A DNA stretch of 64,000 nt from an uncultured Chloroflexia bacterium (GTDB taxonomy: Bacteria; Chloroflexota; Chloroflexia; QHBQ01; JADMIH01), in the NCBI GenBank assembly GCA_963797095.1, contig CAWCNY010000002.1, positions 1-64,000 on the forward strand. The letters run 5' to 3'. The position numbers were made by a program, and so were the translations under genes. Positions 44,826 to 63,100 of this stretch are shown here, one piece after another. Every line of letters starts with the position of its first letter. Within the stretch, counting starts at the first letter, position 1. The notes beneath the pieces are model-generated. The model saw only the letters and a program-made list of their open reading frames with translations, was not told the DNA's origin and did no database searches.

Positions 44826-44898
44826 CTGCCCCTCCTCTTACCCGTAGACCCTTTCCATTTCCTCAGGAACGCTATCCGCATGTCAATCAGCCTGCGCC

Positions 44899-45574: not shown

Positions 45575-45657
45575 TTCCTCGACCTCTCTCAGTCGTGAAA
45601 TAGAAGTGTTACAGAAACGGGACTGTATGAGCCATTCACGGGAATCTCCAGGTTTGA

Positions 45658-47073
45658 TTACGGCTCATTGCCCCACCGGTAGCCTTCCGGCGGCAGGCTT
45701 ATATTGACTGCCACTCGGTCGGCCCTGGCTTTGGCTTCACCGACGTGGGCTGTATAGCTGAGCCTACCGGCCAACATCAACGGATAAAGCCCCATCTCCG
45801 GATAATCGAGCAGGGTACGGTGGGCGCTGAAGAACTGGTTGAGAGCCTCGATTGCCAGCGTTAACGCCCTGACCTCCCGCTCGCTTGGCCTTATCGGTTC
45901 ACTATGCGCCACCAGCCTGTGGAATGAAGGCACGGCTTCTCGCGATGGGTATTTCAGCTTTCGCTCGGCCAGCCAGCTCAGATAGGTCGGATCGCTCTCT
46001 TCTTCGGGGTCGAAATAGAGCAGCAGGCTGTCCTCAATGGCTTCCAGGTATTCTTCTTTGTCCATAGATTCGTCCGCTTCTTCGCCTACTTCGTCGTCTG
46101 TAGCGATGCCTTGAGCCTCCATCATCGTAGATAGCATCTCACGCAGGGCCTCCGGTGGTACTTCATCCACCGGCGCACCCAACTGCCGCATCAACTCTAT
46201 CAACTCGCCTACTCTCTGATCCGCTTTCTCAATCGGCTTATCTATTGATGCTTCTGCATCTACCGCTGTTTCTGCCACTTCGCGCTCCATGCGCGCCTCA
46301 CCGCGCTGTAAGATGCGCTCGAAAGCCTCAAGGGAATAGTAGAAAGCCACGCCGTATACTTCACCGGCGTTGCCGAGAACAACAGCGTAGAGGGTTTCTA
46401 CATCCTGTTGGGGTCCGTGTCGACCCAGTTCAATGGCGATCGGTAGATCACTGCCCATGTATTCCCACGGGGCACGACGCCAATAGCTGGCCGCCGCCTT
46501 GTAGAGAGGTGGTAGTAGTACTTCAGCAATAATCCACTCAAAAGGCTCAGGCGGATCCTTCCCGGCGTCCCCATTGGCGCCCAGTGCTGCGGACAGGTCG
46601 CGAAATGCTTCTTCATAGTCCGGCAAGTGTTCTGCATATTCAATGGGTATGCCGAGAGGAGCAAGCAAATGGCGCGCGGCCTCGGCCAGCACTGGATCGT
46701 TGATTATTATCCTCGTGGGAAGGCCAGGTTCGGGTGAGGGGAAGGGAATTGCAACAGGGGTAGCCACCGGCCTGGCAAGAGCCTCTACAAGTAGTTGAAG
46801 CGATTCGGTGATTCCGTCATCGCTGCTTTCGGCGGGGTTGATCAGCTGAACAGCACGGACGAAGCCGCTATCCGCCTCCACCCACAACGCTATCTGCGGT
46901 TGAACGGCCTGCTTATTTTCATAGATGTATACCCCCAATGGCCGCTTTCCACCCTGGATCACTAAACCGCTACGGCGCGGCAAGGTCGCCAATTGCGCAA
47001 TGATCGCTTGCAATCCGGTTGGATTGAGAACTTTCCGCTTAGTTCTTGCCATGGCCGGCGGCCCCCCTTTCAC
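45658..47073 (-). CDS. Hypothetical protein (471 aa)
   Basis: Long ORF; LYKAAASYWRRAPW...VLGNAGEVYGVAFY; acidic middle region. Confidence 0.7.
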   Translation of the reverse strand: MKGGPPAMARTKRKVLNPTGLQAIIAQLATLPRRSGLVIQGGKRPLGVYIYENKQAVQPQIALWVEADSGFVRAVQLINPAESSDDGITESLQLLVEALARPVATPVAIPFPSPEPGLPTRIIINDPVLAEAARHLLAPLGIPIEYAEHLPDYEEAFRDLSAALGANGDAGKDPPEPFEWIIAEVLLPPLYKAAASYWRRAPWEYMGSDLPIAIELGRHGPQQDVETLYAVVLGNAGEVYGVAFYYSLEAFERILQRGEARMEREVAETAVDAEASIDKPIEKADQRVGELIELMRQLGAPVDEVPPEALREMLSTMMEAQGIATDDEVGEEADESMDKEEYLEAIEDSLLLYFDPEEESDPTYLSWLAERKLKYPSREAVPSFHRLVAHSEPIRPSEREVRALTLAIEALNQFFSAHRTLLDYPEMGLYPLMLAGRLSYTAHVGEAKARADRVAVNISLPPEGYRWGNEP

Positions 47074-47437
47074 GCTGTGCTCGGTTACCAGATTATTCTA
47101 CACTTCATCGATTGCATTGCCCAATATCACAATATCATACGAGACCTGAGCCAGATTCCTGGATTGCTCGCCGGTGGGATTACTCCGATTTAGATTATTC
47201 ATGACTTGATACGAAATGGACTATTTCGAACATCGCCGGGCTGGCGTCGCCGAGAGTTGAATTACAGCGCTGGCGATTGTACCACACTTCGATTTACTCG
47301 AACATCGACTATTTTCTCACCTGAGCTCCTGCAATCCCATTATCCACCTCGATCGTCTATCTTGGAGCCTAGCACGCATAACCCCGCACTTTTATCCGGT
47401 TGCTACACTTGTTGCTACACCTGGACCTGAATTGCTA

Positions 47438-47467
47438 CAAAAATACGCCGGAACAGCGTTCCGGCGT
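47438..47467 (-). terminator. Intrinsic terminator downstream of tRNA-Arg
   Basis: acgccggaac-agc-gttccggcgt stem followed by ATTTTT on the minus strand. Confidence 0.75.
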
Positions 47468-47497
47468 CGCTTTTCGTGCGTAAATCTGCTACCAAAA

Positions 47498-47574
47498 TGG
47501 CGCGCCCGGAGGGATTCAAACCCCCGACCCTCTGATCCGAAGTCAGATGCTCTAGTTCGCTGAGCTACGGGCGC
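47498..47574 (-). tRNA. tRNA-Arg(TCG)
   Basis: GCGCCCGTAGCTCAGCGAACTAGAGCATCTGACTTCGGATCAGAGGGTCGGGGGTTTGAATCCCTCCGGGCGCGCCA: full cloverleaf, TCTGA/TCAGA anticodon stem, encoded CCA. Confidence 0.95.
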
Positions 47575-47699
47575 AGGACTACACAGACTTTTAGCTTTTC
47601 TAGGCGTAAAACGAGGGTCAAGAAGGTGCTACTGCTCTCGAAATTAGCCGATGGTTTGACATGCTCAATCTGATTAGATGCTGTGTCAAACCACTATTT

Positions 47700-47728
47700 A
47701 GCTTACTAAACTAGCTCATTTGTGTCAA
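47700..47728 (-). promoter_or_regulatory. Element-borne sigma70 promoter for the reconstituted tRNA
   Basis: TTGACA-17bp-TAAGCT; similar to 59375-59403. Confidence 0.75.
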
Positions 47729-47731
47729 GAC

Positions 47732-48110
47732 GCCCGGAGCATCTGAATCGTCTGAGGGCAAGCTCGAAGTATCTCGCTTGGCTAGGGGTCGGGGGTTTGA
47801 ATCCCTCCGGGCAGCCTTTAGTGACCGTACAGCTATCAATCTCCCAAAATCGGTCGGCTGGACTTCGATGCGGGCCTACAGCCCGCAAGTAATAGGATGT
47901 GGCCCCCCCCGGGGTTGGGGCCCCTCAAATCTGTCTGCACCGACCCTGTGGAAAAGTCGGATGCGCTTGACATAGTGTCGTAACATGCATCCAGCACAAA
48001 GAGCCAGGACGGGCTTTGGCGGGCAAGCCCTGGCTCTGAGTGCGGGTTGCGACTTTCGTCGCTTCTCTTACATACGTGCGGCTGAGGAGCACGCAGGCAA
48101 CAGGTGTTGC
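47732..48110 (+). ncRNA. Candidate structured ncRNA or single-strand origin starting with a tRNA-like domain
   Basis: Inverted tRNA-Arg T-arm/acceptor copy at 47786-47812 plus about 9 consecutive hairpins; no convincing ORF; strand uncertain. Confidence 0.4.
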
Positions 48111-48222
48111 AACGGGGAGTATAACACAGTAGACATGAGCTAACAATGTGGAAAAGGTGGAAAACTCGAACCTGTGACATCACTTGCGTGTTCTGACGCC
48201 GCTAGCTGAACGGAGAAGAAGC

Positions 48223-48458
48223 ATGAAAATAAGGTTTGAGACGGAGTACAGAATTGGGGGCCGCAAGGTATCGCAACGCGAATGGTTGGACCATATGCTA
48301 AGCAAGCAGCCGAACGGATTGCCCGGAACTGTGAGGCAAGAATTAGGTGCCCGGAGCATGGGAAGCCGCCCAAGGTGACATATCTTGGGGGGAGGTTCCA
48401 TATCGAGGGGTGCTGTGAGAAGGTAGTTGAGTTGACGAAACGTGCGCTGAGTCGTTGA
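48223..48458 (+). pseudogene. Small frameshifted gene with CPEHG...GCC motif
   Basis: MKIRFETEYRIGGRKV... continues in another frame as RIRCPEHGKPPKVTYLGGRFHIEGCCEKVVELTKRALSR*. Confidence 0.55.
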
Positions 48459-48647
48459 TATTGCCAGTGGGCAGAACTAGGGAGAGCAGGACCGCCACCT
48501 GCTCCCTTTGGTCTGCATACAACAACTAGTGTTGGTTTGTAGTATATTATTGTAGCGATGCACATCCTTGTGGCGAAGTTGCAGTGACAAAGGATTTCCC
48601 GGTACTTTTCGGCGTTCGTGTGGCGGGCGCTGTTCTACGAGGTACAC

Positions 48648-49856
48648 ATGACTCACCAAAGTATTATCAGCTTGGATGACATTCTTGCTCTTGTGGGCAA
48701 GCTAGACGATACGCCCGGCCTAGACGCGCCCAGGGAGCGTTTTCGTAATCACCTACAGAAGATAGTGGAAGTAGGGCAGCTTCGCGACTATGTTGAAACT
48801 TGCTTGAGGGCTTCAGGGGAGCAGTACGCACGCGCTCTCCAAGACTTAGTGAACTATGCAGGCAACTTCTTTGGTTTCCATGTGACCTATGGTAGGTACC
48901 AAGGAATATCTGGCGAACATAACTTTGATGGACGCTGGGAGGCTCCCGGCGGCCTCCATATAGTCATTGAGACCAAAACCACGGAAATCTACCCAATCAA
49001 AACGAGCAAACTTCTAAACTACATCAACGAACTGGTTGCTGCTGGGCAAATCCCCAAACAAGAGGATGCCTTGGGTCTGTATGTGGTAGGCCATCCGGAC
49101 CCTGAGATACAGCAACTAGAAAACGCAATTGTGGTGCAAAAGCCGATTCCGAATTTGCGAATTGTGTCGGCCCTATCCTTGCTGTCGCTGGCTGAGATGC
49201 GACAAGCCTATGGGCTCAATGATGATGACGTGTTAAGCATCCTCCTGCCCTCAGGGCCACGAATTGACCCACTCATAATGCTTATTGACCGCCTGGTGGC
49301 TGAAAGAGAAGCGGAAGCAACGATGGCGAGTGAGCAGAAGGTAATAAGGACAACAGTCGAAAAACTGGGGCTGCCGGAACCTACTTTACAAGCCTCCAAG
49401 TTTGTCATTCCCGATACAGGCACCATCACCTTCTGGATTACCCCGGTTAGAGACGATGAAGGGGAGACTGCAGAACAGACCATTCAGAGGCTGGTGGGCG
49501 AAGAGCATATTTACGCTTTCGGAGAGAAAACGCCCGGTCGTAGGAAGATAAAGTCGGGCGACGTGATTTGTTTCTATGCTGCGGGGCGTGGTGTCATTGC
49601 AGATGCTAGAGTAACATCGCCCCCAATAAAGAGGCCACACCCGCGGGTCAAGCAACCGGACAAGTATCCGTGGGTGTTTCGCATAAAGGATACACACCTC
49701 TATTTGGAAAACCCGGTTGTCATTGACGGGGCACTAAGGAGTCAACTTGACAGGTTCCAAGGGCGCGACCCAAACGGGCCTTGGGCATGGTTTGTTCAGG
49801 CTACACACGATGTTTCACAGCACGATTTTGAACTTCTAACACGACAGAAAGGCTGA
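48648..49856 (+). CDS. PD-(D/E)xK restriction-like nuclease fused to C-terminal EVE/PUA-like domain
   Basis: FDGRW...IVIETKT nuclease core; FWITP...IKSGDVICFY...GVIADARV...YPWVF EVE pattern. Confidence 0.72.
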   Translation: MTHQSIISLDDILALVGKLDDTPGLDAPRERFRNHLQKIVEVGQLRDYVETCLRASGEQYARALQDLVNYAGNFFGFHVTYGRYQGISGEHNFDGRWEAPGGLHIVIETKTTEIYPIKTSKLLNYINELVAAGQIPKQEDALGLYVVGHPDPEIQQLENAIVVQKPIPNLRIVSALSLLSLAEMRQAYGLNDDDVLSILLPSGPRIDPLIMLIDRLVAEREAEATMASEQKVIRTTVEKLGLPEPTLQASKFVIPDTGTITFWITPVRDDEGETAEQTIQRLVGEEHIYAFGEKTPGRRKIKSGDVICFYAAGRGVIADARVTSPPIKRPHPRVKQPDKYPWVFRIKDTHLYLENPVVIDGALRSQLDRFQGRDPNGPWAWFVQATHDVSQHDFELLTRQKG

Positions 49857-49858
49857 TT

Positions 49859-52800
49859 ATGCCGGCGCCACAATCCATCCTTTCCCACATTGAGCGCTTC
49901 GACAATGACCGACAAGCCTACAAATCCGGCGTCTATAATGAGGCGCAGGTTCGGCGCGAGTTCCTGGACCCCTTCTTCAAGGAGCTAGGCTGGGATGTAG
50001 AGAATGAAGGTGGTGCGGCGGTTGCCTACAGAGACGTAATTCATGAAGACACGTTGAAAATCGGTGAGACTACGAAAGCCCCGGACTACTCATTCCGCAT
50101 AGGCGGCACTCGAAAGTTCTTTGTTGAGGCCAAAAAGCCGTCTGTCAACTTGGATACGGACCCTAGACCAGCTTACCAACTGCGGCGCTATGCCTGGTCT
50201 GCAAGCCTACCCCTAAGCATCCTCACCGATTTCGAGGAGTTCCTGGTTTATGATTGTCGAATAAAGCCGGACGCCTACGACGGTGCGCGGGTGGCCCGCG
50301 CCATGTATCTCAAATACACGGAATATGCGGATAAGTGGGACGACATTGCCGCGCTCTTCTCTCGCGAGGCCGTGCTCGCCGGGTCGCTTGACAAATATAC
50401 CGAATTGCTTAAGGCCAAGACAGGCTCGTCCACTGTTGATGCTGATTTCCTAAAGGAGATTTCAGTCTGGCGCGAGATGCTAGCACAAGACTTGGCAGCG
50501 CGGAATCCGCACCTAACTCAACGCGACCTCAATTATGCTGTGCAGATGACTATCGACCGTATTATTTTCCTGCGTATTAGCGAAGACCGGGGCATTGAGC
50601 CATATGGCAGATTGCTGGAAGCACAACAGGGAGAAAGAGTGTATGCGCGGCTGTGTCGGCTCTTCGAAGCTGCCGACGACCGCTACAATTCGGGCCTGTT
50701 CCACTTCCGCGACGAGAAGGGCCACAACGAGCCGCACGATGAGCTAACCCCGGCACTGACTATACACGACGACACACTCCGGCGTATCATCACCCGCCTT
50801 TACTACCCCGATTCGCCCTATGCCTTTTCAGTCATGCCGATTGAAATTCTGGGGCAGGTTTACGAGCAGTTCCTGGGCAAGGTTATTCGCCTGGACGAAT
50901 CTCGTAATGTTGAGGTTGAGGAGAAGCCAGAAGTACGCAAGGCGGGCGGCATCTACTATACGCCCACATACATCGTGGATTACATCGTAAAACAAACTGT
51001 CGGCAAACTCCTGGAAGGCAAGACGCCGAAGCAAGCCGTCGACTTTCGTATTGTGGACCCCGCGTGCGGCTCCGGTTCATTTCTCATCGGCGCATACCAA
51101 TACCTTCTCAACTGGCATCGCGACTGGTATGTGGCTGACGGCACACAGAAGCACAAGAAGGAGCTTTATGAGGCTTCAGGAGGCGAGTGGCGACTAACTA
51201 CGAATGAGCGCAAAAGGATACTACTAAATAACATTTATGGCGTGGATATCGACCCCCAGGCGGTAGAGGTCACAAAGCTCTCACTCCTGCTTAGAGTGCT
51301 TGAGGGAGAAACCGGACAAACCTTGGCAACGCAGCTGCGGATGTTCTACGAGCGGGCGCTGCCGGACCTGAGCAGCAATATTAAGTGCGGTAATTCCTTA
51401 ATAGGTTATGATTTCTACAGCGCGACACAGGCCAGCTTTCTGTCGCCGGAGGAACACAGCCGCATCAACGTGTTCAACTGGCACGAGGCTTTTCCCCAGG
51501 TGTTCAAGCGCGACAGCTCTGGATTTGATGCTGTGATTGGCAACCCGCCGTACATTCGTATCCAGACTATGCAGGAGTGGGCTCCCGTAGAAGTCGCACA
51601 CTACAAGCGACGATATGTTTCGGCCAGCAAAGGCAACTACGACGTGTATGTTGTGTTTGTGGAGAAGGGACTTTACCTGCTCAATAAGGGCGGACAACTT
51701 GGCTTCATCCTGCCCCACAAGTTTTTCAATGCTCAGTATGGCGAGCCGCTGCGCGCCCTGTTGGCACAGGGGCACCACTTAGCTGAAGTGGTGCATTTTG
51801 GCGACCAACAGGTGTTTTCAGGCGCGACGACCTATACCTGCTTGCTCTTCCTTGAAAAACGCGGCTCCTCTGAAGTGCAGATTGCCATGGTTGAGAATCT
51901 GGACCAGTGGCGCAGGAAGTCCCAGGCTGTGTACGGAACGGTTCCAGCAGAAGCTATTGCACCTTCTGACTGGAATTTCTATGTCGGAGAGGGTGCTGAC
52001 TTGTTTGGCAAGCTAAGACAGGTGCCAACAAAACTGGGTGCTATCGCGGAACGCATTTCGCAGGGGATTCGTACAAGCGCCAATGAGGTGTACGTGCTCA
52101 ACATCGTGGACCAAGCGACCGATGTACTAATCGTCCATTCACAGTCGTTGGGTAAGCAGGTGGAGGTCGAGCGGGCCGCGGTGACACCCTTCCTTCAAGG
52201 CCGCGAAATCAAGTCATATAGGGTACTTCCTTCCGGTAAGGTGGTGATTATCCCTTATCACCTGGCGAATGGCCGCGCAAAGCTCGTTCCCGAGGATGAA
52301 ATGAAGACTCGTTTCCCGCTCACTTTGGCCTATCTTGTTGCAAATAGGGCATACCTAGAGGAACGGGAACGGGGCAGGATGCATGGCTCGTCCTGGTATG
52401 CCTTCGTCTATCCAAAAAACATCGAATTGATGAAGTCGGCCAAGATTCTTGTGCCGGACATTGCCGATAGAGCAGCATTTGCACTAGATGAAGCCGGCGA
52501 ATACGCCTTCACAAGCGGTTATGGCATTACATTGAGACCTGATGTTAGCTTGTCGCCCAACTATGTTTTGGGCCTACTGAACAGCAAAGTCCTGGACTTC
52601 TACCTAAAGCGTGTCAGCACGACTATGCGCGGCGGCTTTTTCCGATACTTCACACAGTACGTTGAGCAATTGCCGATGCGTGCTATCAATTTCGCTGACC
52701 AGGCCGACAAAGCCCGACACGACCACATGGTATCACTTGTAGCACGGATGGTAGACTTTTACAGACAATCAGCCGTTGCCAAGACACCGCACGACAAGAC

Positions 52801-52909
52801 TGCAATCCAGCGCCAGATAGACGCCGCCGACGGGCAGATAAACTCCCTTGTGTACGAGCTTTATGGGCTGACAGATGAGGAAATCCGAATTGTTGAGTCG
52901 GATAAATAG
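49859..52909 (+). CDS. Type IIG restriction-modification fusion (Eco57I-like, N6-adenine MTase, TaqI-C TRD)
   Basis: PDY...VEAKK, GIYYTP, DPACGSGSFL, IGNPPY, LGLLNS. Confidence 0.93.
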   Translation: MPAPQSILSHIERFDNDRQAYKSGVYNEAQVRREFLDPFFKELGWDVENEGGAAVAYRDVIHEDTLKIGETTKAPDYSFRIGGTRKFFVEAKKPSVNLDTDPRPAYQLRRYAWSASLPLSILTDFEEFLVYDCRIKPDAYDGARVARAMYLKYTEYADKWDDIAALFSREAVLAGSLDKYTELLKAKTGSSTVDADFLKEISVWREMLAQDLAARNPHLTQRDLNYAVQMTIDRIIFLRISEDRGIEPYGRLLEAQQGERVYARLCRLFEAADDRYNSGLFHFRDEKGHNEPHDELTPALTIHDDTLRRIITRLYYPDSPYAFSVMPIEILGQVYEQFLGKVIRLDESRNVEVEEKPEVRKAGGIYYTPTYIVDYIVKQTVGKLLEGKTPKQAVDFRIVDPACGSGSFLIGAYQYLLNWHRDWYVADGTQKHKKELYEASGGEWRLTTNERKRILLNNIYGVDIDPQAVEVTKLSLLLRVLEGETGQTLATQLRMFYERALPDLSSNIKCGNSLIGYDFYSATQASFLSPEEHSRINVFNWHEAFPQVFKRDSSGFDAVIGNPPYIRIQTMQEWAPVEVAHYKRRYVSASKGNYDVYVVFVEKGLYLLNKGGQLGFILPHKFFNAQYGEPLRALLAQGHHLAEVVHFGDQQVFSGATTYTCLLFLEKRGSSEVQIAMVENLDQWRRKSQAVYGTVPAEAIAPSDWNFYVGEGADLFGKLRQVPTKLGAIAERISQGIRTSANEVYVLNIVDQATDVLIVHSQSLGKQVEVERAAVTPFLQGREIKSYRVLPSGKVVIIPYHLANGRAKLVPEDEMKTRFPLTLAYLVANRAYLEERERGRMHGSSWYAFVYPKNIELMKSAKILVPDIADRAAFALDEAGEYAFTSGYGITLRPDVSLSPNYVLGLLNSKVLDFYLKRVSTTMRGGFFRYFTQYVEQLPMRAINFADQADKARHDHMVSLVARMVDFYRQSAVAKTPHDKTAIQRQIDAADGQINSLVYELYGLTDEEIRIVESDK

Positions 52910-53201
52910 CCGGGGGTCAGAGACCAAGACCATCAACACCAGAACGAAAGCCCAAGAGAATCAAACGCAGCCTATATAGCTCTATGGTATGAGGTGTTGT
53001 GAGTTCACGACGTGGAACATTGCCTCAATGTCATTGTCAGCGCCCGCCTCCTTGAATAAGGCAATTGCCTCATCCGGCGTGCATAGGCCGTATTCTCGAA
53101 AGAAGGCGGTCGTAAAGTGCCAATCAGAAGGGCCAGATTTTTCGCCGTATTTCGTCTTGCGCCCCACAACATCGGCGAAAGCAACAAGGTCGCATAGCTC
53201 A

Positions 53202-53558
53202 CTAAGCCGCTTTAGCGCAGGATGAAGAACGCGGGGCGTTTTTGTAGGTATAGGCACGCTGCTTGTGTCGGCTCCAGGTCTTGTGTCGTTTCTTATGGCA
53301 TTTTGTACAAAGAGTACGAAGGTTGTCAAGCTCATTGTTGCCTCCCAAGCACAACGGGATAAGATGGTGGACCTCAAGGCGGCAGTTGCGCTTCTTGCAA
53401 TCCCTGCAAGTGAAGTGGTCGCGCAGGAGTGCCAAGCGGCGGATGGCGCGCCAATTGCGGCCTCGTGCAGCACGCCTACACTTGTCGGAGCAATATGCGT
53501 GAATATGGCTCTTCGGTGAGAAATCGGTTCCGCAACTTCGACATTTCTTGGTATTCAT
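53202..53558 (-). CDS. HNH endonuclease with N-terminal Zn ribbon
   Basis: CRSC, YCSDKC, RDHFTCRDC, EVHH...GGNNELDNLRTLCTKCH. Confidence 0.9.
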   Translation of the reverse strand: MNTKKCRSCGTDFSPKSHIHAYCSDKCRRAARGRNWRAIRRLALLRDHFTCRDCKKRNCRLEVHHLIPLCLGGNNELDNLRTLCTKCHKKRHKTWSRHKQRAYTYKNAPRSSSCAKAA

Positions 53559-53584
53559 CGTGCCGCCTCCTCATTTGTACCTGT

Positions 53585-53613
53585 ATTATACCAGTACAAA
53601 ACGTACTTGTCAA
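53585..53613 (-). promoter_or_regulatory. Consensus sigma70 promoter for the HNH gene
   Basis: TTGACA-17bp-TATAAT on minus strand. Confidence 0.85.
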
Positions 53614-53691
53614 GGGGTTTGCGCAATATTGCTCGAAATTGGTCGGTCATAGTTTGGCAGCATGACGAGCAAAGCTAAATGTAAGAGCCTC

Positions 53692-53720
53692 TTGACAATT
53701 TAGTTTCTTACCTGTATAAT
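53692..53720 (+). promoter_or_regulatory. Consensus sigma70 promoter for the RHH-like gene
   Basis: TTGACA-atttagtttcttacctg(17)-TATAAT. Confidence 0.85.
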
Positions 53721-53752
53721 ACCTGCATGATATATTTGAGGAGGCATGACAA

Positions 53753-53953
53753 GTGGTAGAAAAGAACCCCAATAAGGGCGGCAGACCTCGCAAGGACACA
53801 CATGCAAGGCAGTTCCCCCTTTACATCTACATGATGGACGAGGAGAGCCTGCAGCAGGTCAAAGAAGCAGCAGAGCGACAAGGGCTTAGCTTCAGCACCT
53901 GGGCACGGACCGTACTGGTAAGAGAGGCACGGCGCATCTTGAGCGGCGAGTAA
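53753..53953 (+). CDS. Small AT-hook + ribbon-helix-helix-like DNA-binding protein
   Basis: GGRPRK; AAERQGLSFSTWARTVL; GGAGG RBS; paralogue at 59577. Confidence 0.75.
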   Translation: MVEKNPNKGGRPRKDTHARQFPLYIYMMDEESLQQVKEAAERQGLSFSTWARTVLVREARRILSGE

Positions 53954-54120
53954 TTGCCCAAATCGCCCCGCATATTGTAGAGACCCCCCGGTAACTTTCC
54001 ATTTGCCTTTCGGCAATTGTGTGGCCCCCCGGTTCTCTACTTGCCGCTACGCGTGTGACGCGACCCCAAAGCGGCCAACATAAGCACAACACGGAGGGAA
54101 ATGGTTATTAGTGCGGAGAT

Positions 54121-54402
54121 GTGCCCCTGGCGCTTATCCAGTCGTCAAGAGGAGGTAGTTTGTTGGAAACTTTGGAAGCAACGCCTGAAGTATGTGAGTC
54201 GCTCATATTCGATGCGCGTAACCGGCTAATGCTGGCCTATCTAGCTCGTGAAGATGGTGTTTCGGGCGCTTACGAGCGCTTGGAGGTCGAGCGTTGGCGG
54301 GTCAACCTGATGGAAAGCGAGATGGGGCGCCCCTGCCTCCCTGTGCTGACTGAGTTACGCGCATCGGGACAGCAGATTTATCTATTGGACCTTGACGATT
54401 GA
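54121..54402 (+). CDS. Hypothetical protein
   Basis: ORF with GGAGG RBS before the internal TTG at 54162. Confidence 0.45.
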   Translation: MPLALIQSSRGGSLLETLEATPEVCESLIFDARNRLMLAYLAREDGVSGAYERLEVERWRVNLMESEMGRPCLPVLTELRASGQQIYLLDLDD

Positions 54403-54987
54403 GCGCAGCGCCCCGCAGACCTGTGCGATAATGGGCACCGGGTCGGGGTAGCCATACTTACGCCGGGCGATTATGCAGTTATCGGGGAGCGTGTCAAGAG
54501 CAAATACCCTGAAAGATGATTGCTCCCCCCGATTGAAGCGTAGCCGCCCCGGCTCCGTTCCTGAACGCTGAACATAGTCTGCATGCCAGGCAGCGAAAAG
54601 CCTGAGGTCTATTATCGTCCAGGCTACGAGGCCGCTCTCATCAGGCGACTTGAACCCGTAGAACATCACATCACCTTCGCCATCAAGTATCTTGCCAAGC
54701 TCTGTTCGCCTTCCGCTTGGCACACTGGCGCGCAGAGTGATTTCACCTACATATCTCAGGTAGTCGTAAGCGCGTAGCCTAACTGCGATTCTCCGGTGGG
54801 GAAGGATTGCGTCGGTGTTCTTGTGTCGGTCAATATGAAGGGGCGCGCGTTGGATAGTGTACCGCCCGACAAGCGCGCCGATTTCCGGAAGTAGCATGTC
54901 GTCGCGAGACTGCTCAACGCGGCGGTCAACGTCGGCAACTTGATACAGTAACTGTCTTTGGAGCGTGGGTAATTCGGTGTCAATCAT
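54382..54987 (-). CDS. Hypothetical phage/island protein, possible PD-(D/E)xK fold
   Basis: TD...IAVRLR...EITLR...TELGKILDGEGDVMFYGF. Confidence 0.6.
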   Translation of the reverse strand: MIDTELPTLQRQLLYQVADVDRRVEQSRDDMLLPEIGALVGRYTIQRAPLHIDRHKNTDAILPHRRIAVRLRAYDYLRYVGEITLRASVPSGRRTELGKILDGEGDVMFYGFKSPDESGLVAWTIIDLRLFAAWHADYVQRSGTEPGRLRFNRGEQSSFRVFALDTLPDNCIIARRKYGYPDPVPIIAQVCGALRSIVKVQ

Positions 54988-55103
54988 ACTTAGTTCCTCA
55001 GTTCGATATGTGGGGCATAGTTAAGCCCCTAGTTGTAGTTCTAGGGGCAGCCAGCGAGCGGAATCCATTACTTGCTTCTAGTATTCATTACTTGCTTCCG
55101 CCC

Positions 55104-56618
55104 CTATACTCTATAAGGAGAATCCATCGGGGCATATTGCCTGTAATTACCGGGAAGGAAAAGCTTTGTTCGTCTCCCTCTGCCTGCAGCGACATCAAGC
55201 TGCTTGCCACTCGCATCACGAGCGTAGGCAACTATCCGCTTGAGCAGCAGGTTCTTCATAGCTTCTTGACAACGCTTCTGGGGAAGGGCGCACCAGGCCT
55301 CTAGGAATTGCCAGCTAAGGGGGGCCGGGTCACCATAGGTGTGGAGCCACCGCGCTTGGAAGAGAAGGTTGAGCTTGTCATAGACTATGCGGGTGTCTGC
55401 CTCGTCCAGCTCGTATGGCAGGGCTGGAAGTTGGACGCGAGCCGGTTGCACATACCCTGTCTCGACCATGAGGCGCAGATGCCATGTGACGGACCCTGAT
55501 TTGCTGGGACGCACCTCCTCAGGTGAGCGTGGGCGACGCAATGCAAGGGCATACGCGACTTCCGACATGAGAAGCGCCGGGCTTGCATCTGGCCGCACAT
55601 GGAAGTCTCTATAGACATAGACGCCATTCTGGCCGGGATAGATGCTTGCGGATGGACCATTCTCCTCGTGGCCCGGCAAGACACAAAGGAACGTCTTTCC
55701 GAAGGGCACATCAGGGATACCCATAAGCCTACATGCCGCCCGGATGAAGTCCTGGTCGCGGCTAGCATCTGTGAGGTACTCACCAACTAGGCCCCCCTCA
55801 GTTCGGGCGCACTCTGCTATGCGCTGTAGCGCAGCCTTGCGCTCCTGGAGCAAGTTGGGCATGATGAGGCTCTTCTGTGACTGCCTCCTGTTGGCATCGC
55901 TGCGGCCTGTGCTTGGCACTCTTGACCTACCTTCGGCCTGCATCAGCTTCTCAGCGAGCCAGTCGGGTAGACAAAGGGGCGGGCGCTCGTGAGGCCCGAA
56001 ACTTGCAAGCCAGGTGTACCGCCTGCCGGACTGGTGAAGGGAAGGCGGCAGTACCAGATAGCCGCCAACGCCGCGCACATCTACTCCGGGAGCCACTTTG
56101 CCGTTTGAAGCGCTAATGTATCGCCCCCCAGTCGAGAAGAAGAGATGCTCACCCCAACCTTCGCGACCGCTGCGGGCCTTTACGGTCTCTGTGAAGGCCG
56201 GGCCATGCTTCGCTATCCAGTCGTTCAAGGCCTCTATGCCTTCTTCTCCGTCCAGGTCTATTGCGACAAGATTAGCCCTTGCAGGTACGCACCCGATGCC
56301 GGCGTGCGCCCATCGCGTCCACCATTTGCTTATGACTTCACGGTTTGTGGAGGCATTTTTCAGGTAGTCTTTGATAAGGGGCTTTTTGTTGACGCTGTCC
56401 ACCGGGAATACTGGTATTCCGGCTTGGGCGTATGCGAGTGCCCACTCTAGCATATCAGGTGATTCGGTCTGGGTAGGGAGATAAGGAATTGGCTTCGTCT
56501 GCGTTATATTGGGTGCCGCCCCTGTCTTCACCGGAGCATAAGGGCGAACTCTTGGGCGGGTTGGTCGTGTAGTAATTGCGAGTGTCATTTGGCCCCCTAT
56601 TGTGGGCAGGTGCTCCAA
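55104..56618 (-). CDS. Bifunctional DNA primase/polymerase (Prim-Pol) replication protein
   Basis: ALAYA..GIPVFP, KKP, LVAIDLD, GEHLFF, VDVRG.GGYLVLPPS.H.SG.RY.W. Confidence 0.88.
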   Translation of the reverse strand: MEHLPTIGGQMTLAITTRPTRPRVRPYAPVKTGAAPNITQTKPIPYLPTQTESPDMLEWALAYAQAGIPVFPVDSVNKKPLIKDYLKNASTNREVISKWWTRWAHAGIGCVPARANLVAIDLDGEEGIEALNDWIAKHGPAFTETVKARSGREGWGEHLFFSTGGRYISASNGKVAPGVDVRGVGGYLVLPPSLHQSGRRYTWLASFGPHERPPLCLPDWLAEKLMQAEGRSRVPSTGRSDANRRQSQKSLIMPNLLQERKAALQRIAECARTEGGLVGEYLTDASRDQDFIRAACRLMGIPDVPFGKTFLCVLPGHEENGPSASIYPGQNGVYVYRDFHVRPDASPALLMSEVAYALALRRPRSPEEVRPSKSGSVTWHLRLMVETGYVQPARVQLPALPYELDEADTRIVYDKLNLLFQARWLHTYGDPAPLSWQFLEAWCALPQKRCQEAMKNLLLKRIVAYARDASGKQLDVAAGRGRRTKLFLPGNYRQYAPMDSPYRV

Positions 56619-56669
56619 ACGCGCCTGCCCTTCAGTGCTTTAAATCTGCAGTACGGCGAACTTTTCGCT

Positions 56670-56879
56670 TTAGCGCTTGTGGTCGATATAGGCTTCAGCA
56701 GCTTTCGCGGCTTCGGTGGGGTCGTTGAAAACCCCTGGAATAGCGCGACGCCCCGCCCCATAGATAGGGGTTATGCTTGCGCGGTATCGATACAGACGAC
56801 CTGCGGCCCTGCGAACTTCGATGGTGTAGTCCTTATACTGATATGCGTCTACCAGATTTACCCTTGTTCCAGCTTTCAC
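56670..56879 (-). CDS. Small hypothetical protein
   Basis: GTGA overlap with upstream ORF, GGAGGT RBS. Confidence 0.6.
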   Translation of the reverse strand: MKAGTRVNLVDAYQYKDYTIEVRRAAGRLYRYRASITPIYGAGRRAIPGVFNDPTEAAKAAEAYIDHKR

Positions 56880-57079
56880 TTTGTATCACCTCCCTGGCTC
56901 TGAGTTGTTGCCCATTCTTGGGCTAAGGCGTATAAGAGGCGGCTAATGCAGCCGCGCTCTGTGATTCTTCCCGGTCCGCGTTTGTGGAGAAGTCCTCGTG
57001 CTCTGGCCATAGAGCGAAGGAGTTCTTCCGTCCGGGGTGTAACGGTAAGTAACAACTGCTTTTCCTTAGTCTGCTTCAC
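56876..57079 (-). CDS. Small basic hypothetical protein (possible RHH regulator or excisionase)
   Basis: AGGAGG RBS; first gene of the replication operon. Confidence 0.55.
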   Translation of the reverse strand: MKQTKEKQLLLTVTPRTEELLRSMARARGLLHKRGPGRITERGCISRLLYALAQEWATTQSQGGDTK

Positions 57080-57096
57080 TGCGTCCTCCTAATTCT

Positions 57097-57193
57097 GTAA
57101 CTGGATACCTATATTTATCCCCTCTACTTAATCAAGCAGGTTCGTATTCGTAACTGGATACCTATGTTTCCCCCTTCTACTTAATCAAGCAGG
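57097..57193. repeat. Two 44-bp imperfect direct repeats, period 53
   Basis: gtaactggatacctat...tctacttaatcaagcagg at 57097-57140 and 57150-57193. Confidence 0.9.
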
Positions 57194-57233
57194 CAGGTTT
57201 CTTATTCTGAAAGTTATCGGGTAGACTGTACAT

Positions 57234-57665
57234 ATGCTTTCTGCCCGACTTATCTTCGCGCACCCGGAACTATGTCAACCGCTAACCGGGCTATCGCCGG
57301 CTGACTTCCGTGCAACCGCCAAGGGAATCGGAGAGTACTACATAGACGAACGTGAAGCGCGGCTCAGTAGCCGCCCTCGCATCCGGGAAATTGGAGGCGG
57401 CTCGAAGCCGCTCTTGCCAGCAGACGTCATATTGCTGGGCATGATATGGCTACGCTGCCGCCCCACACAAAAGGCATTAGCGGCGCTATTTGGCAGAAGC
57501 GTGCCAACAGTTGGTCGTTACAAGCAGCTAGTAGAGCCAATACTGCTAGAAACGCCTTATGCCTTCCTTGCCACCCCAGACCCCGGACGGAAGCGCAGGC
57601 GCGATTTGGGTGAGTTGCGGGCGGACATTCCGGAGCTAGATAAGTTGTGGCGTCAGTGCCGCTAG
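57234..57665 (+). CDS. IS5/ISL2-like transposase HTH domain (HTH_Tnp_4) without DDE domain
   Basis: LTGLS..DF, R.REIGGG.KP, MIWLR..PTQ.ALAALFG.S..TV.R. Confidence 0.7.
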   Translation: MLSARLIFAHPELCQPLTGLSPADFRATAKGIGEYYIDEREARLSSRPRIREIGGGSKPLLPADVILLGMIWLRCRPTQKALAALFGRSVPTVGRYKQLVEPILLETPYAFLATPDPGRKRRRDLGELRADIPELDKLWRQCR

Positions 57666-57932
57666 TTCCTGCAACTTCATGCAAGATTTCCTGCAAGAAT
57701 TGCCTTTCGAATGAAGTCGGTTGAGGCCTGTTTTGAGCACGCTACCCATTCCCGTTGCGCTTGTCGCGCTGTATTTGTACGGGCTACGCGCCGCCCTGAT
57801 ACACGCACAGGCGATAGTGGGTAAGGCAATTGTTGGCGCTGCCTTACGCTCTCGCTTGCCCACAAATGAAAAGGGCCGCCCCTATAGGGCGGTTCTCGAT
57901 GGTTAACGTGCTTGCAGGGTCGGGGAGCCAAG

Positions 57933-59168
57933 CTAAGGAATCAGGCCGGCCTTCTTCAACCTCTTTCTGACACCCATATCAGACATCTGATACTTACGAG
58001 CTACTGCACGATAGTTGCTCTGCGCTACCTCCCTGGCAAGTACCTCAGCAGGAGGCAACTCCTTGGGAACTGCGTTCTTGCTTCGGGTGCCGCTGCCGTC
58101 TTCCAGGTGCAACTCGTGGCGCAGGTGGTCAAGGGGCCCGTATTTGGCATGTTCAGCCAGCAGGTCCTCTTTGCTGATGTTCAGGTAGTATCTGCGGGTC
58201 GTGTCGAACTGCTCATGTCCCAGCGCTTCTTGCAGCGTAGCGCCCCTCATGCCGTTCCGGTGAGCCTGGGTTGCAAATGTGTGCCTGCAAACGTGGGGAT
58301 GGACAGGCACCCGCGTGATGCCCGACAACTTACTCAGTCGCGTGAATACCAAGCGCAACCCTGCATAAGTCAGGGGAGCACCCTGATGGCTGACCCACAA
58401 TTCCTGAAAGGGCGTGCTCATCTTCAATCGGAAGCGGTGGAGGTATGCCCATAGCTCTCGCCTAGCGAAGTTGCCCACCACTACCTGCCTCTCCCTGTTG
58501 CGCTTCCCACGCACTGTAAATAGCCCCTCGCCTGGGTTGATGTCGCCCACTTTGAGGCTTAGAAGTTCTCCGGCCCGGATACCGCTATCCAGCAAGACAG
58601 CAAGTATGCAGCGGTTGCGCTGCACGGTGAAGGGTAGGCCGAAGTTCTCACAGGCAGCGAATAACTGGGCAATCTCTTCGTCGGTAAACACAGTCACCTG
58701 CCAGCGATTAGGCAGGGACGGCATATCCACCAGGCTGAATGGGTTGCGTGGGAGGTCCGCTTCCTTCGTCGCCCAACGAAAAAAGGCGCGCAGGCTTCGG
58801 GCGAAGCCATGCACGCTGGCAGGGGTTAATGGTTTGCGGCTGCTGGGGCGGCACACACCCCACCGGCCACTGTCGCCTGGGTCCTCCTGCAAATAGACCA
58901 GGAAGGCCCGTATGTACAAGGGGGAAATACTAGAGAGGTTAGTTGGATACCCCTCTTCCTTTAGAAACCATCGGAAGCGCTCCAGATTCCACTGATAGAA
59001 TTGGATTGTTCGGGGGCTGTGTCGCTGCGAGCGATGCTTCAGCAGGAACCCTTGAACATAGAAGTTGAAGTCGTCCGCCGATTCTTGAGTAGACTGTTGG
59101 GGGTACAAGCCGCTGCCGGGCGCTTTGAGGTTTGAGTAGCGATTCCGAATTAGATGCTCGTTTGACAT
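57933..59168 (-). CDS. Tyrosine recombinase/integrase with C-terminal HTH extension
   Basis: SAM-like core-binding domain; catalytic DSGIR, GK, HVCRH, LGH, TTRRY. Confidence 0.93.
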   Translation of the reverse strand: MSNEHLIRNRYSNLKAPGSGLYPQQSTQESADDFNFYVQGFLLKHRSQRHSPRTIQFYQWNLERFRWFLKEEGYPTNLSSISPLYIRAFLVYLQEDPGDSGRWGVCRPSSRKPLTPASVHGFARSLRAFFRWATKEADLPRNPFSLVDMPSLPNRWQVTVFTDEEIAQLFAACENFGLPFTVQRNRCILAVLLDSGIRAGELLSLKVGDINPGEGLFTVRGKRNRERQVVVGNFARRELWAYLHRFRLKMSTPFQELWVSHQGAPLTYAGLRLVFTRLSKLSGITRVPVHPHVCRHTFATQAHRNGMRGATLQEALGHEQFDTTRRYYLNISKEDLLAEHAKYGPLDHLRHELHLEDGSGTRSKNAVPKELPPAEVLAREVAQSNYRAVARKYQMSDMGVRKRLKKAGLIP

Positions 59169-59285
59169 GGGTGTTGTCTCCTATTATAGGAGAGCAATAA
59201 CCCCTCAGCTACTCAATTCACGCCTGAAATCGCTGTCTGGCTAGGTTCTAGGCCCGCAACGAGGTGTAATAAGGTCAAACTCGCA

Positions 59286-59326
59286 ATCCGAAGTCAGATG
59301 CTCTAGTTCGCTGAGCTACGGGCGCA
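59286..59326 (-). repeat. tRNA-Arg 5'-half copy (att site)
   Basis: atccgaagtcagatgctctagttcgctgagctacgggcgca identical to 47535-47575. Confidence 0.95.
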
Positions 59327-59374
59327 AATATCATGAACCGCTGGCTCGTCCAGATAAAGCAAACTATCGTAGTT

Positions 59375-59403
59375 AGCTTACTTCAACAGCTTATTAGTGT
59401 CAA
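59375..59403 (-). promoter_or_regulatory. sigma70 promoter upstream of the tRNA 5' fragment and integrase
   Basis: TTGACA-ctaataagctgttgaag(17)-TAAGCT. Confidence 0.75.
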
Positions 59404-59576
59404 GAAAGCTTGAAATAATGGGTGCACAGAAGCGATGCGCTGGCCTTGTACAACATTCAGATCAAGAAATCCAAGAATACATCAATAGACCATCGACCTT
59501 GCCAACAACACCGTAACCAGCGTATAATTAGTAGTGGTATGATAATATACCGAATCATTGTCTGGAGAGAGCGCCT

Positions 59577-59795
59577 ATGACCAATGGGATGGATGCAGAA
59601 ATGCCTGCACGTAGACGGCCCGGCCGCCCACCCAAAGAAGTCCGCATGAAAGAATTCCCGGTGCATTTTTATATGCAATCGCGGGATAGCTTGGACAGAT
59701 TGAAAAGAGCAGCCGAGACCGAAGGTATGTCTCTTAGCACCTGGGCGCGTACCGTATTACTCAGAGAAGCGCGACATATTCTGCACGATGAATAG
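59577..59795 (+). CDS. AT-hook + RHH-like protein, paralogue of 53753-53953
   Basis: PGRPPK; AAETEGMSLSTWARTVLLREAR; TTGCCA-18-TATAAT upstream (59499-59528). Confidence 0.75.
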   Translation: MTNGMDAEMPARRRPGRPPKEVRMKEFPVHFYMQSRDSLDRLKRAAETEGMSLSTWARTVLLREARHILHDE

Positions 59796-59860
59796 AAGCA
59801 TGAGAGCGTGCACAAGCAGGGTCATGTAAGAGTGTTAGAGCAAATGAAAGGAGACAGAAA

Positions 59861-60130
59861 TTGGCTAGTGTGACGAATCCTGATCACCGTATGATTAGTA
59901 AGACCCCCCTGAACCAGGTGGAGACAAGGCGAGGCAATATTATGCAATCGCCCTACATGTTCAGGAATCTGCCTGGAGAATTGCGTCGTTTGCAGGCATT
60001 CGTACAAGATGTGCGCGTTATGTTGGGCGAGGATGTGCCCGCCCTTATTACGGAAGTGAAGCACCTGCGCCAGGAGAACAAGCGGCTGGAAGCAAGGTTA
60101 GAAGCACTAGAGAACCATAATCAGCAATAA
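59861..60130 (+). CDS. Small coiled-coil hypothetical protein
   Basis: LRQENKRLEARLEALE; start may be ATG 59942. Confidence 0.5.
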   Translation: MASVTNPDHRMISKTPLNQVETRRGNIMQSPYMFRNLPGELRRLQAFVQDVRVMLGEDVPALITEVKHLRQENKRLEARLEALENHNQQ

Positions 60131-60178
60131 TCTTAGCAATCTCTCTCCTAACCCCTGATAACCTATATTTTCTGAATC

Positions 60179-63100
60179 TTAGATGGCACCCACGGCCAGC
60201 AGAGTCACGATGGTCGCGGCAAAGAGGAAAACCGCCAGCCACAGCGGGGCATTCCTCCTGTATAAGGTCCATCCATCCGCCGGTGGCTCGGAAACCGATG
60301 TGAACGCCAGCACCAGCATAGTAGCGAACAGGCCGAGTCGCATGCTGGGCCAACCCATAAGCCAATAGATAACCCCAAAGACCACGGCCAGCGCCAGGTT
60401 AGCCAGCGTGCCCGCAAACATGATGCGCGCCGCCGGGCTGAGGTTGAACCAACCGCTCCCACGCACAGAAACCACGCTTGAGGAGCCAACAGGAACCGCT
60501 TCGAGCGCCGGTGCATCGCCCGTATCGGCTGCCGCTTCGGTCTGCACCTCATATAGAAGGTCGCTCTCTTCGGCGGTGCGTGCTTTCCTGATATTGCCGC
60601 CGCCCTCAGTTGCTTGCATGCCGCCGTCTGCTGTGGTCAGGCGCGTGACGTTCTGCCAGCCGTACATGAAGCCGAATGGTATGCTCACGATACCGAGCAA
60701 TATACCCATAGGCCAGATATGGTGGAGGGTGGATGCACCTGCCTTCCCTGCCACCCAGCGCTGGGCAGCCTCATTCACGCCGAAGGCCAGCAGAGCCATC
60801 ACGAAGGCTACTGGAAGGAACACCAGTGCTACCTCCCACGAACCATGCCCGGCGGCCCAGGCCAACCCTAACATCCCTATCACAGCGGGTATCAGGATCG
60901 AAGTCAGCAAGGCGTTTCTTGTCGCACTGCCCGGCGACACAAGGCGTGGGAAGACAGTCTTGAGCCTGACATCCAGGAGCACGGCCAGGCGGCCTATTAC
61001 CCCCCTTGTCGGGATCAACCCCATGCGATTGGTCATACGGTCGTTGCCGACCAGGGTGTGGAGGAGAAGTAACAACAGGATCGGAAGCGCTCCTGCCTTC
61101 ACCCAGAAATCGAGCGCAGGCGCGTCGGAGGCGGGCAGAATGTCGCGCTCGTCGTAACGCAGGTTGTAGCCCCAGCGCAGGCTGTCCGGGCCGATAGCCT
61201 TGATAGCAGAGGCCTGGGCATCTTCGGCCGTAAAAAAGTTGCCGATACCTGCTTTGTAAGCAGCCGCGGCCAGGTTGTGATCTCCCAGCACGTAAGCCGG
61301 GCTGGCTTTGCCCGCAAGCTCAAGATAAGCCTGGGCTGCCGGATTACCCATCTGCGAATAGAGCACACCCAGGTTGTTCCAGGCCGGGGCCAGCGCCGGG
61401 GAGAGAAGATAAGCTTGCTTGTAGCGGAAAACAGCTTGCGAAAGGTCGCCGCCGGGGGCGCGCCGTAATGCATCGCCTGTTCGGAGAGCTATAATAGCCG
61501 GAACCGGCGTGCCATTGCCCATCCAAAGTGGGCGTCCCACACCGCTGAAGTTCTCGGCATCTTGCAGGTTGAGGATTATGCCTGCCACGCGGTATGCATT
61601 GGCGGCTTCCTTCTCCTGGCCGCCCGCTTCAAGGAGGAGAGCGCCCTGGTATAGCAGTTCTCCGGCGTCCACGTCGTTCGACACGGTGGGCGAGATGGTT
61701 ACCGGGTCATATCCTCCCGCCTTCAAGACATTGATGCCGTCAGTGGTGGTCTTACCGGATGCGAGCGCCGATGCGCGTGCCTGGCCCGCCAGGGCGGCCG
61801 CACGACCGGGTTGCCCGGCACCCAGGCCGTCCAGCAGAGCCCATGCCTTGCCGTAAGTATCGGCGGCTTTCGAATAAAGGGCAGCGGAAGCGTCGCCCGT
61901 AACGGCCTGGGCAGCCGCCTCGTATGCGTAACCGCCATACAGGTAGAGCAGTCCGCCCACTGCGGCGGGTTGGCTGTCAGCACCGGCAGTGATATTGGTC
62001 ACGAGGCTATCGATCAGGTCGGACTTATTCTGCTTGCTCCATGCCATAGCGCGCACAAGATGGGCGTCCATGGTTTCCTGGGCAGCATCGCGGGCCGCTA
62101 GAGAGGCAGTGGTGGTGAGAACGGTGTTTGCCACGCTCACCATATCACCAGCAGAGAGGTCTTTTGCCAGGATACGAAGGGCGGTCTCGGATTGGGCCAG
62201 CGCGCCATCTGTATCGCCACGGGCGAGGAGAGATTGCGAGTAGGAAATGAGAAGAGGCGCGTCGTCCTGGCCGTTGATCGAGAGGGCCGTCTGGTACTCA
62301 CTCTGAGCTTCCGATTCGCGGCCCAGGAAACTCAATAGGCGCCCGCGGTCGTGGTGGATGCGCCCTTGAAAATCTTTGGCAAGCCCGCCGGAGGAAGCCA
62401 GGGCAGCCATATCGCTCAGCATGCGCTCGTAGGCGTGCTGCTCAAGGCCCAGGCGGAGCCATTTGCGATAAAGGTTGTAGGTGGCCTTGCCGGAGAAGAG
62501 AGCGTCGTAGTAGGTCTTGTAGGCGGTGGCCGGGTCGCGCCGTGCCCACTGTGCGTCGCCTAGAGCTTCCTGTGCCAGGTCTCGCGCTTCGTAAAAGGAG
62601 TTCGCCACGTTCTCAGCCGCATCGGGTGCCAGCTGCGCCGTAACGACCTGGTTGAGAAGCGTTATCGCCTCATCAGGCTCGCCCATCCTGAGGGCAGAGA
62701 GCCCCATCCAGAACCGGATAAGCGCGAAATCCTTGGTTTCATCCTTGTCAACCACGGTGCGCATAGCTTCGTAAGCCGACAGGTAGTTGCCCGTAAGGAA
62801 GTTGGCGAGACCCCAGTTATAGGTGTACTGCCATACATCCGGGTTGTCGTTCGCGGCCTGCTGGAAGCCTAAGACCGCCTCACGCTCGCGATTGTATCGG
62901 ATCTCAAGCGTGCTTGATGTGAGCGATACAAGCATGCTCAGCATAGCAAGGCCATTTTGGGCCTTATCGGTGTCATCCATATCCTGATACGTTATCGCCA
63001 GCGAATTTAGCTTGGTACGGTCGGGGTTGGCCTCAAGACCCGAGTTTTTCACTCGGATTTCCAGGCTACCCGTGCTTGAGGCAAATACCTGGCCGACGAT

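Follow-up and report, generated by a model that had tools for sequence, protein, structure and literature searches.

In the classical type of integration into tRNA genes (the sublocation classes of Williams 2002; P4-like elements with the tRNA followed by the integrase gene, int), the element's attachment site, attP, has its tRNA homology on the 3' side of the crossover, and the gene retains its host promoter. In this study we describe an integrative element, named here island R, in a tRNA-Arg(TCG) gene of an uncultured Chloroflexia bacterium (GenBank assembly GCA_963797095.1, contig CAWCNY010000002.1), for which comparative evidence supports the reverse arrangement. The analysed stretch, called the window, comprises the first 64,000 nucleotides (nt) of this 1.37-Mb contig; the source genome (G000) is an 8-contig assembly of 6.0 Mb with a guanine plus cytosine (GC) content of 57.9%. 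A bacterial element described by Zhao and Williams in 2002 (J Bacteriol 184:859) reportedly replaces the 5' rather than the 3' part of its tRNA, cutting the gene off from its original promoter. The present locus differs from it in belonging to Chloroflexota, in having an integrase of a different clade, and in its surroundings, since the tRNA has a classical island on its downstream side and, upstream, the probable relic of an earlier element.

The other comparable system is archaeal. According to PMC8371274, pTN3-like integrases use the tRNA 5' half, the tRNA is said to be expressed from the integrase promoter, and use of the 5' half is seldom met in bacteria. A displaced tRNA promoter that may read into the integrase fragment is mentioned in PMC8371274 and PMC5495485, and the latter gives pTN3 a shared core of 41 bp and describes a tRNA-Leu cut off from its promoter. 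Island R resembles the pTN3/TKV4-type elements of Thermococcales in that attB is the tRNA 5' half and the reconstituted tRNA is separated from its original promoter. The pTN3/TKV4-type integrases are 'suicidal', with attP inside int so that integration splits the gene; unlike in the pTN3/SSV type, int is here one whole open reading frame (ORF) of 411 amino acids (aa), the core lies 117 bp upstream of its ATG, and the host is a bacterium. With classical anticodon-loop integrases it shares the tyrosine recombinase, the crossover in the anticodon stem-loop, and an int gene downstream of the core and co-oriented with the tRNA. A first-pass annotation of the window had taken 5'-restoring elements to be unusual, and this is correct; the arrangement itself, however, is rare but already described, in the element of Zhao and Williams and in the archaeal pTN3 type. 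No description of such an element from Chloroflexi was found in the literature, judged by title or abstract. Island finders and annotators as a rule look for a repeated 3' piece of the tRNA, with the integrase adjoining the intact gene, and reversed elements are therefore easily missed or wrongly bordered.

We regard it as quite probable that island R belongs to a small family of integrative elements from Chloroflexota that is centred on a tyrosine integrase with a Prim-Pol replication protein, that its attP carries the 5' 40 nt of the tRNA, that a promoter-like site beyond the half tRNA (site B) comes from the relic of an earlier element, and that the 3' half of the working tRNA was supplied by a neighbouring classical island, named island C.

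Anatomy and mosaic structure of the tRNA-Arg(TCG) gene

The only tRNA called by ARAGORN in the window is the intact tRNA-Arg(TCG) at positions 47498-47574 on the minus strand (Rfam tRNA, 63.9 bits). Its 7-nt anticodon loop comprises gene positions 33-39, with the anticodon at 35-37. Screening the window with the tRNA by blastn-short revealed a half copy (E 4e-18), which shares with the intact gene a direct repeat of 41 nt at 100% identity. The repeat consists of the base preceding the tRNA and gene positions 1-40, and stops one base beyond the anticodon loop. One copy, the attR core (47535-47575, minus strand, tRNA position -1 to 40), reaches from the intact gene to the island border, and the other, the attL core (59286-59326, minus strand), is a displaced tRNA 5' part. 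Island R (47576-59285, 11.7 kb) is flanked by these repeats, which equal the target tRNA segment in 41 of 41 nt. The intact tRNA is situated at the integrase-distal end of the island, and the half copy is adjoined by int (57933-59168, minus strand; Pfam PF00589, 5.9e-29). Proteins were assigned with Pfam and PHROG.

The outer flanks of the locus were searched in 40 relatives, 24 of them from the same genus; the closest are ~76% identical to the source genome in DNA. In 12 of the 24 genus relatives, a whole tRNA was found on the same contig as a homolog of the host TPR protein gene that lies beyond the half tRNA (60179-63538, minus strand; Pfam and relatives), which marks this gene as the ancestral upstream neighbour of the tRNA. 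A spacer of about 70-140 bp separates the two genes in eleven of these twelve; the twelfth, G018, has a 505-aa gene in between. The TPR stop lies 70-110 bp from the tRNA in the empty-site relatives read closely. Two of the twelve, G021 and G022, are unpublished genomes, and the empty-site claim stands on the other ten. The cleanest empty site is that of G017, with the TPR stop, 71 bp, the tRNA and the native 3' flank in succession. Its downstream flank aligns with the window sequence just below position 41950 (75/96, ungapped), and does not align with the sequence below the intact tRNA of the window. From the empty sites and the native 3' flank of G017 it follows that island R entered the tRNA gene and supplied its 5' part. 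The reversed, 5'-restoring orientation is thus supported by comparative evidence.

Island R has a GC content of 53.9% (genome 57.9%), is single-copy in the genome, and was not found as such in the 40 relatives. Only its methylase gene matches them, with 64-77% DNA identity at other loci in 4 of the 40 genomes. The first-pass annotation had reported the perfect 41-bp repeat of the tRNA-Arg 5' half with the intact tRNA at the integrase-distal end, on which ARAGORN, the repeat search and the ORF positions agree, as well as a distance of 117 bp from the half tRNA to int, which is indeed that of the int ATG. It had also proposed a comparison with related genomes, and the side from 59327 onwards leads, as expected of a former tRNA flank, to the TPR gene.

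The downstream side of the tRNA has a history of its own. A displaced native tRNA 3' part comprising positions 31-77 with 1 mismatch, followed by the native downstream flank, is located at 41950-41996 on the minus strand, and island C (41997-47497, 5.5 kb), a classical 3'-restoring island, occupies the space up to the intact tRNA. The tRNA terminator (47467-47445) is carried by island C. The working tRNA is a mosaic of 5' 40 nt from island R and 3' 37 nt from island C, and so no part of the working gene is native. It is nevertheless identical in 77 of 77 nt to the tRNA of G004, G014 and G017. Since the tRNA 3' fragments reach back to position 31 and the 5' repeat extends as far as position 40, both kinds of event would have crossed over within the anticodon loop, and we infer a crossover within tRNA positions 31-40.

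Promoter-like sites A and B and the segment beyond the half tRNA

Two promoter-like sites of 36 nt are arranged as direct repeats on the minus strand. Site A (47695-47730) is island-borne and has the form TTGACA(47728-47723)-17-TAAGCT(47705-47700); site B (59370-59405), likewise TTGACA-17-TAAGCT, lies beyond the half tRNA. The similarity of the sequences upstream of both tRNA copies, which the first-pass annotation had pointed out, amounts to 29 of 36 identical positions (81%; E 0.004 in a comparison confined to the window). The two sites agree in both hexamers and in the bases flanking these; of their seven differences, six are located in the spacer and the last directly follows the -10. The -35 is in the host's usual CTTGACAC form in both. 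The pattern CTTGACAC-N15-17-TAAGCT occurs only at sites A and B in the whole 6.0-Mb genome, in which TTGACA-N16-18-TAAGCT has three occurrences. The -10 of site A ends 125 nt from the +1 of the tRNA, and site B lies 49 nt from the +1 of the half tRNA.

A TATAAT-like -10 was found within 55 nt of 32 of the 71 tRNA genes of the source genome, and within 22 nt for 24 of these. None is present within 124 nt of the tRNA-Arg(TCG) at 47498-47574, and site A is the only sigma-70-like element upstream of the restored gene. Comparable sites precede two other restored tRNAs: TTGACA-17-TAAAAT in G028, at a distance of roughly 85 nt, and TTGACC-17-TATAAT in a remnant in G004, at 156 nt. The host-form -35, the kept hexamers and the sites of G028 and G004 make a promoter function of sites A and B plausible, and transcription of the restored tRNA most likely relies on element DNA. 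The ~119-nt leader between site A and the tRNA (47576-47694, minus strand) opens with a 10-bp inverted repeat (47652-47661 / 47684-47693) and has a single AGCATCTAA motif at 47674-47682. It is probably the attP arm, and such a long arm may be what forces the promoter outward.

Site B is embedded in an 852-bp segment between the TPR stop and the half tRNA (59327-60178; sequence and relatives), which fills the place where relatives have about 70-140 bp. Its GC content is 46.9% as compared with 57.9% for the genome; it has no match in the 40 relatives and is single-copy in the genome. The segment encodes a 72-aa gene (59577-59795, plus strand) behind TTGCCA-18-TATAAT (59499-59528), of which exactly one other copy exists in the genome, the gene at 53753-53953 in island R (53% over 59 aa, E 6e-23). 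This paralog (66 aa, plus strand) has faint ribbon-helix-helix similarity and is preceded by TTGACA-17-TATAAT, and both small genes therefore sit behind a consensus promoter. A further small ORF is also present, and for the small ORFs of the segment Pfam and PHROGs give only sub-threshold hints of ribbon-helix-helix or NikA-like proteins. Comparison with the island end 47576-49000 revealed no homology beyond the 36-nt site. Neither a native-type promoter, as judged by eye, nor any further tRNA fragment was found in the segment.

The paralog, the 81%-identical site B and the foreign traits of the segment together make it most likely that this was once the distal end of an older element resembling island R. 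We consider it reasonably probable that the segment is a relic of an earlier related element and that site B belongs to this relic rather than to the host. From the paralog, the low GC content and the TGnTATAAT promoters of relatives, both promoter-like sites are most likely element-derived. If site B belongs to the relic, an earlier round of integration had probably already cost the tRNA its native promoter and 5' half.

The first-pass annotation had instead taken the upstream copy for the displaced host promoter. In this explanation, site B would be the native promoter of the tRNA, pushed away by the island, and site A would have been captured from a similar host, for example by an imprecise excision that took along the promoter and the 5' half. 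The proposal accounts for the 81% identity over 36 nt with identical hexamers and for site B being placed at the host end of the repeat; attachment sites are known to evolve by the capture of host flanks, and the spacer between the TPR gene and the tRNA varies in relatives, to the extent of holding a whole gene in G018. It nevertheless appears unlikely, given that the surroundings of site B are low in GC, were not found in the 40 relatives and carry the island-gene paralog. Moreover, the five empty-site relatives read closely (G004, G017, G020, G022 and G023) have TGnTATAAT 9-17 nt from the +1 and not TTGACA-17-TAAGCT 49 nt away, and the tRNA promoters of the source genome are mostly of the TATAAT type and close to the +1. 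A swap of promoters on excision, which the same annotation had envisaged, would change little: the hexamers do not differ between sites A and B, and each would merely be replaced by its equivalent. The coupling of int expression to the integration state is an idea suggested by the geometry of the locus.

A different role for the 36-nt sites was also weighed, namely that they are protein-binding parts of the attachment arms (for integrase, excisionase or repressor), with the tRNA being read through from island genes or poorly expressed while a second tRNA-Arg(TCG) covers decoding. We regard this as doubtful, because the perfect -35 in CTTGACAC form and the exact 17-nt spacing were kept in both copies while the spacer diverged, and because the locus in G028 and the remnant in G004 also have sigma-70-like boxes. 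The -10 that matches at 3 of 6 positions only and goes unreported in the promoter scan, and the atypical distance of 125 nt to the +1, would both fit a binding role. So would the motif AGCATCTRA, the 5' flank of the anticodon loop, which was chosen after seeing the data: it occurs 5 times in the window, always in attachment regions, and 0 of 100 shuffles reach 5. One copy overlaps the start of the int coding sequence, and another is found in inverted orientation immediately past site A. Two minus-strand ORFs of island R (47836-48183 and 48140-48565) do point at the tRNA, as read-through would need, and a second tRNA-Arg(TCG) does exist, at C2:1282745-1282822; it is only ~78% identical to the tRNA at 47498-47574, however, whereas the latter is identical throughout to that of three relatives. 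Note that the second copy belongs to an array of 25 tRNA genes within 11 kb (C2:1272514-1283690), elsewhere on the contig and outside the window, with no recognisable promoters between them.

An assembly artefact, for example a chimeric join at the tRNA repeat, is very improbable, since, although the sole DNA run listed holds 7% of sampled words, the contig is 1.37 Mb long in an 8-contig assembly, island and segment are single-copy, 41 nt of repeated sequence would not suffice for a collapse at this level of assembly, and the same layout is found independently in G028.

The integrase clade and the gene content of the islands

About 30 integrase relatives at 42-60% identity were found in the protein database, mostly metagenomic and from Chloroflexota where named. 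In an alignment of 28 sequences (A1), the integrase residues R198, K222/K225, H292, R295, H318 and Y328 occupy columns that are invariant or conserved to at least 90%, and we take them to be the catalytic R-K-H-R-H/W-Y set. The orientation of the clade can be read from four loci with readable context (n=4). Besides the reversed island R in tRNA-Arg, the closest integrase relative with context, G028 (54%), is reversed in tRNA-Phe: a perfect 57-nt repeat equals tRNA positions -6 to 51, int adjoins the fragment, the intact tRNA is distal, and the 4.8-kb element carries a Prim-Pol homologous to that of island R. The G037 locus (53%, tRNA-Gly) is classical, with int adjoining the intact tRNA and a 57-nt 3' repeat (positions 21-75 plus 2) on another contig. 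The arrangement in G004 (42%, tRNA-Met) is mixed, since int and its BREX cargo adjoin the intact tRNA while a 5' fragment (positions 1-32) lies 1.1 kb further upstream; no 3' fragment was found in the 13.9 kb read. In the distant relatives G444 and G676 and in the IMG/VR loci L067 and L068, the last two with integrases 33-36% identical, the intact tRNA lies about 100-200 nt upstream of int. As a lead from four loci, the reversed design seems to occur inside the clade, with classical outgroups, and not to be fixed within it.

In genus relatives of G028, the tRNA-Phe is part of a Leu-Val-Phe cluster, which in G028 itself is reduced to Leu-Val. A single tRNA-Phe was found in G028, namely the gene restored by the 4.8-kb Prim-Pol/integrase element (L031, G028:C30:52000-71000), which adjoins a CRISPR array of more than 60 repeats. 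At the tRNA-Met locus of G004 (L032, G004:C2:72000-91500), the displaced 5' fragment and a 1.1-kb remnant with a transposase-like fragment, as judged by eye, lie upstream of the tRNA, and the clade integrase is followed downstream by BrxA, BrxB and a PglX-like methylase, components of BREX.

The integrase protein search of genome contigs returned relatives at no more than 30% identity, the search of metagenome contigs with alignment A1 no more than 32%, and viral contigs no more than 36%, with no match to the exact attL junction pattern in the latter. Among 400 other genomes drawn from the phylum there were 0 integrase matches at E 1e-50, and the phage and plasmid collections gave XerC/D-like matches only, at no more than 31%.

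Besides int and several small ORFs, island R carries genes for replication and cargo functions. The Prim-Pol replication protein (504 aa; 55104-56618, minus strand; Pfam PF09250, 1.3e-36; PHROG DNA primase) is accompanied by an HNH endonuclease of 118 aa (53202-53558, minus strand; Pfam PF01844, 9.9e-09). The cargo region (48618-52909, plus strand; Pfam) encodes a 412-aa protein without known family and a 1016-aa type IIG/IIL restriction-modification enzyme, Eco57I/MmeI-like with a TaqI_C specificity domain. The gene of the 412-aa protein stops 2 bp before that of the enzyme, and the two may form a two-gene defence module. Two tandem 44-nt repeats, 91% identical and 53 nt apart (57097-57193), are located between divergent small genes at 56876-57079 (minus strand) and 57234-57665 (plus strand, helix-turn-helix) and are iteron-like or operator-like.

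The 117-nt spacer between the half tRNA and int (59169-59285, minus strand; sequence) contains a 15-nt palindrome (59178-59192) that folds over the AGGAG ribosome-binding site as a 7-bp hairpin, which may limit int translation; a comparable hairpin precedes the int of G028, judged by eye. A AGCATCTAA motif is located at 59150-59158, within the first int codons. Directly behind site A lies an inverted, degenerate tRNA-Arg-like piece (47731-47815, plus strand), composed of positions 2-7, 23-32 and 45-71 with an insertion and without the D arm. Its 27 nt at 47786-47812 repeat the T arm and acceptor strand from the 3' part of the tRNA in inverted orientation with 100% identity, a detail overlooked in the first-pass annotation. 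The piece received no call from ARAGORN or Rfam, shows no excess fold stability (z-score 0.24), and has no counterpart in G028.

Island C encodes a PIN protein (PIN_3) and DUF7309/DUF6930 proteins together with small ORFs, and no integrase was found among its genes with Pfam. All five TGTAGCAA motifs of the window are located at its two ends (42132-42151 and 47400-47439), where they resemble arm-type sites. The tRNA-proximal end of island C is also present in G001. A stretch of ~136 nt between the DUF7309 gene and the tRNA (47174-47310), without Rfam match, recurs at 79% identity at C1:28109-28244 of the source genome, at 70-74% in G017, G014, G013 (an 80-nt part) and three places in G002, and with parts of ~40 nt at 83-85% in G020 and G006. 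A second, older and more diverged tRNA 3' fragment was observed at 37772-37806, 4.1 kb beyond the first, and a 1240-aa ORF (37967-41689) lies between the two; this fragment and the ORF may represent an older island layer.

Proposed history of the locus and its meaning

We propose the following order of events for the reading in which island R was preceded by a related element. A first reversed element would have replaced the native promoter and the tRNA 5' half, and a deletion would then have removed most of this element along with the native pieces. Island R would later have displaced the 5' half and the promoter of the first element. With an attP that carries the 5' 40 nt of the tRNA, a crossover in the anticodon loop would place the former 5' part beside int; the resident 3' part would be joined to the 5' part that the element brings, along with ~120 nt of its DNA and the TTGACA-17-TAAGCT site. 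The tRNA would then be transcribed from site A, with RNase P removing the ~119-nt leader, and transcription from site B would run through the half tRNA toward int.

Several points weigh against this account. The deletion has to be assumed, since no displaced native 5' half lies beyond the relic. G018 shows that the spacer between the TPR gene and the tRNA can hold native genes such as its 505-aa one, and the ~76% DNA identity of the closest relatives means that there is no strain-level empty site. For the G028 element, Leu-Val without Phe likewise leaves no simple empty site. The family of the small paralogous genes is also found in defence-island contexts of G012 and G005, with no tRNA in the 19.5 kb read; being met away from tRNAs, it is not a strict marker of the element family of island R. 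Only two of the four clade members with context are reversed, G037 being classical and int in G004 following the intact tRNA. A consensus promoter scan calls neither site A nor site B, because the -10 TAAGCT matches TATAAT at only 3 of 6 positions, and the promoter activity of both sites, with this weak -10, is a prediction from the sequence. Excision of island R as a circle is likewise predicted, from the repeat structure.

A wider proposal, which we offer tentatively and consider rather improbable as a whole, is that the clade can switch between 3'- and 5'-restoring attP, as two reversed, one classical and one mixed locus might reflect, and that the promoter and both halves of the tRNA are mobile DNA. 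Integrase output would then differ between the circular and the integrated state through the joint effect of the element's tRNA-type promoter, the half tRNA and the hairpin that covers the ribosome-binding site of int. Island C could be movable in trans by the integrase of island R, because both islands use the same loop.

The main added value of the case lies in the history of the locus. Once a reversed element has integrated, the host tRNA probably has to rely on a promoter in element DNA, and a later element of the same kind then displaces the promoter of the earlier element, not that of the host. In this way a tRNA that is probably needed for decoding became a full mosaic yet kept a sequence identical to that of relatives. 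A small clade with both orientations among close relatives provides a convenient system in which to ask what fixes the orientation of recombination at tRNA sites.

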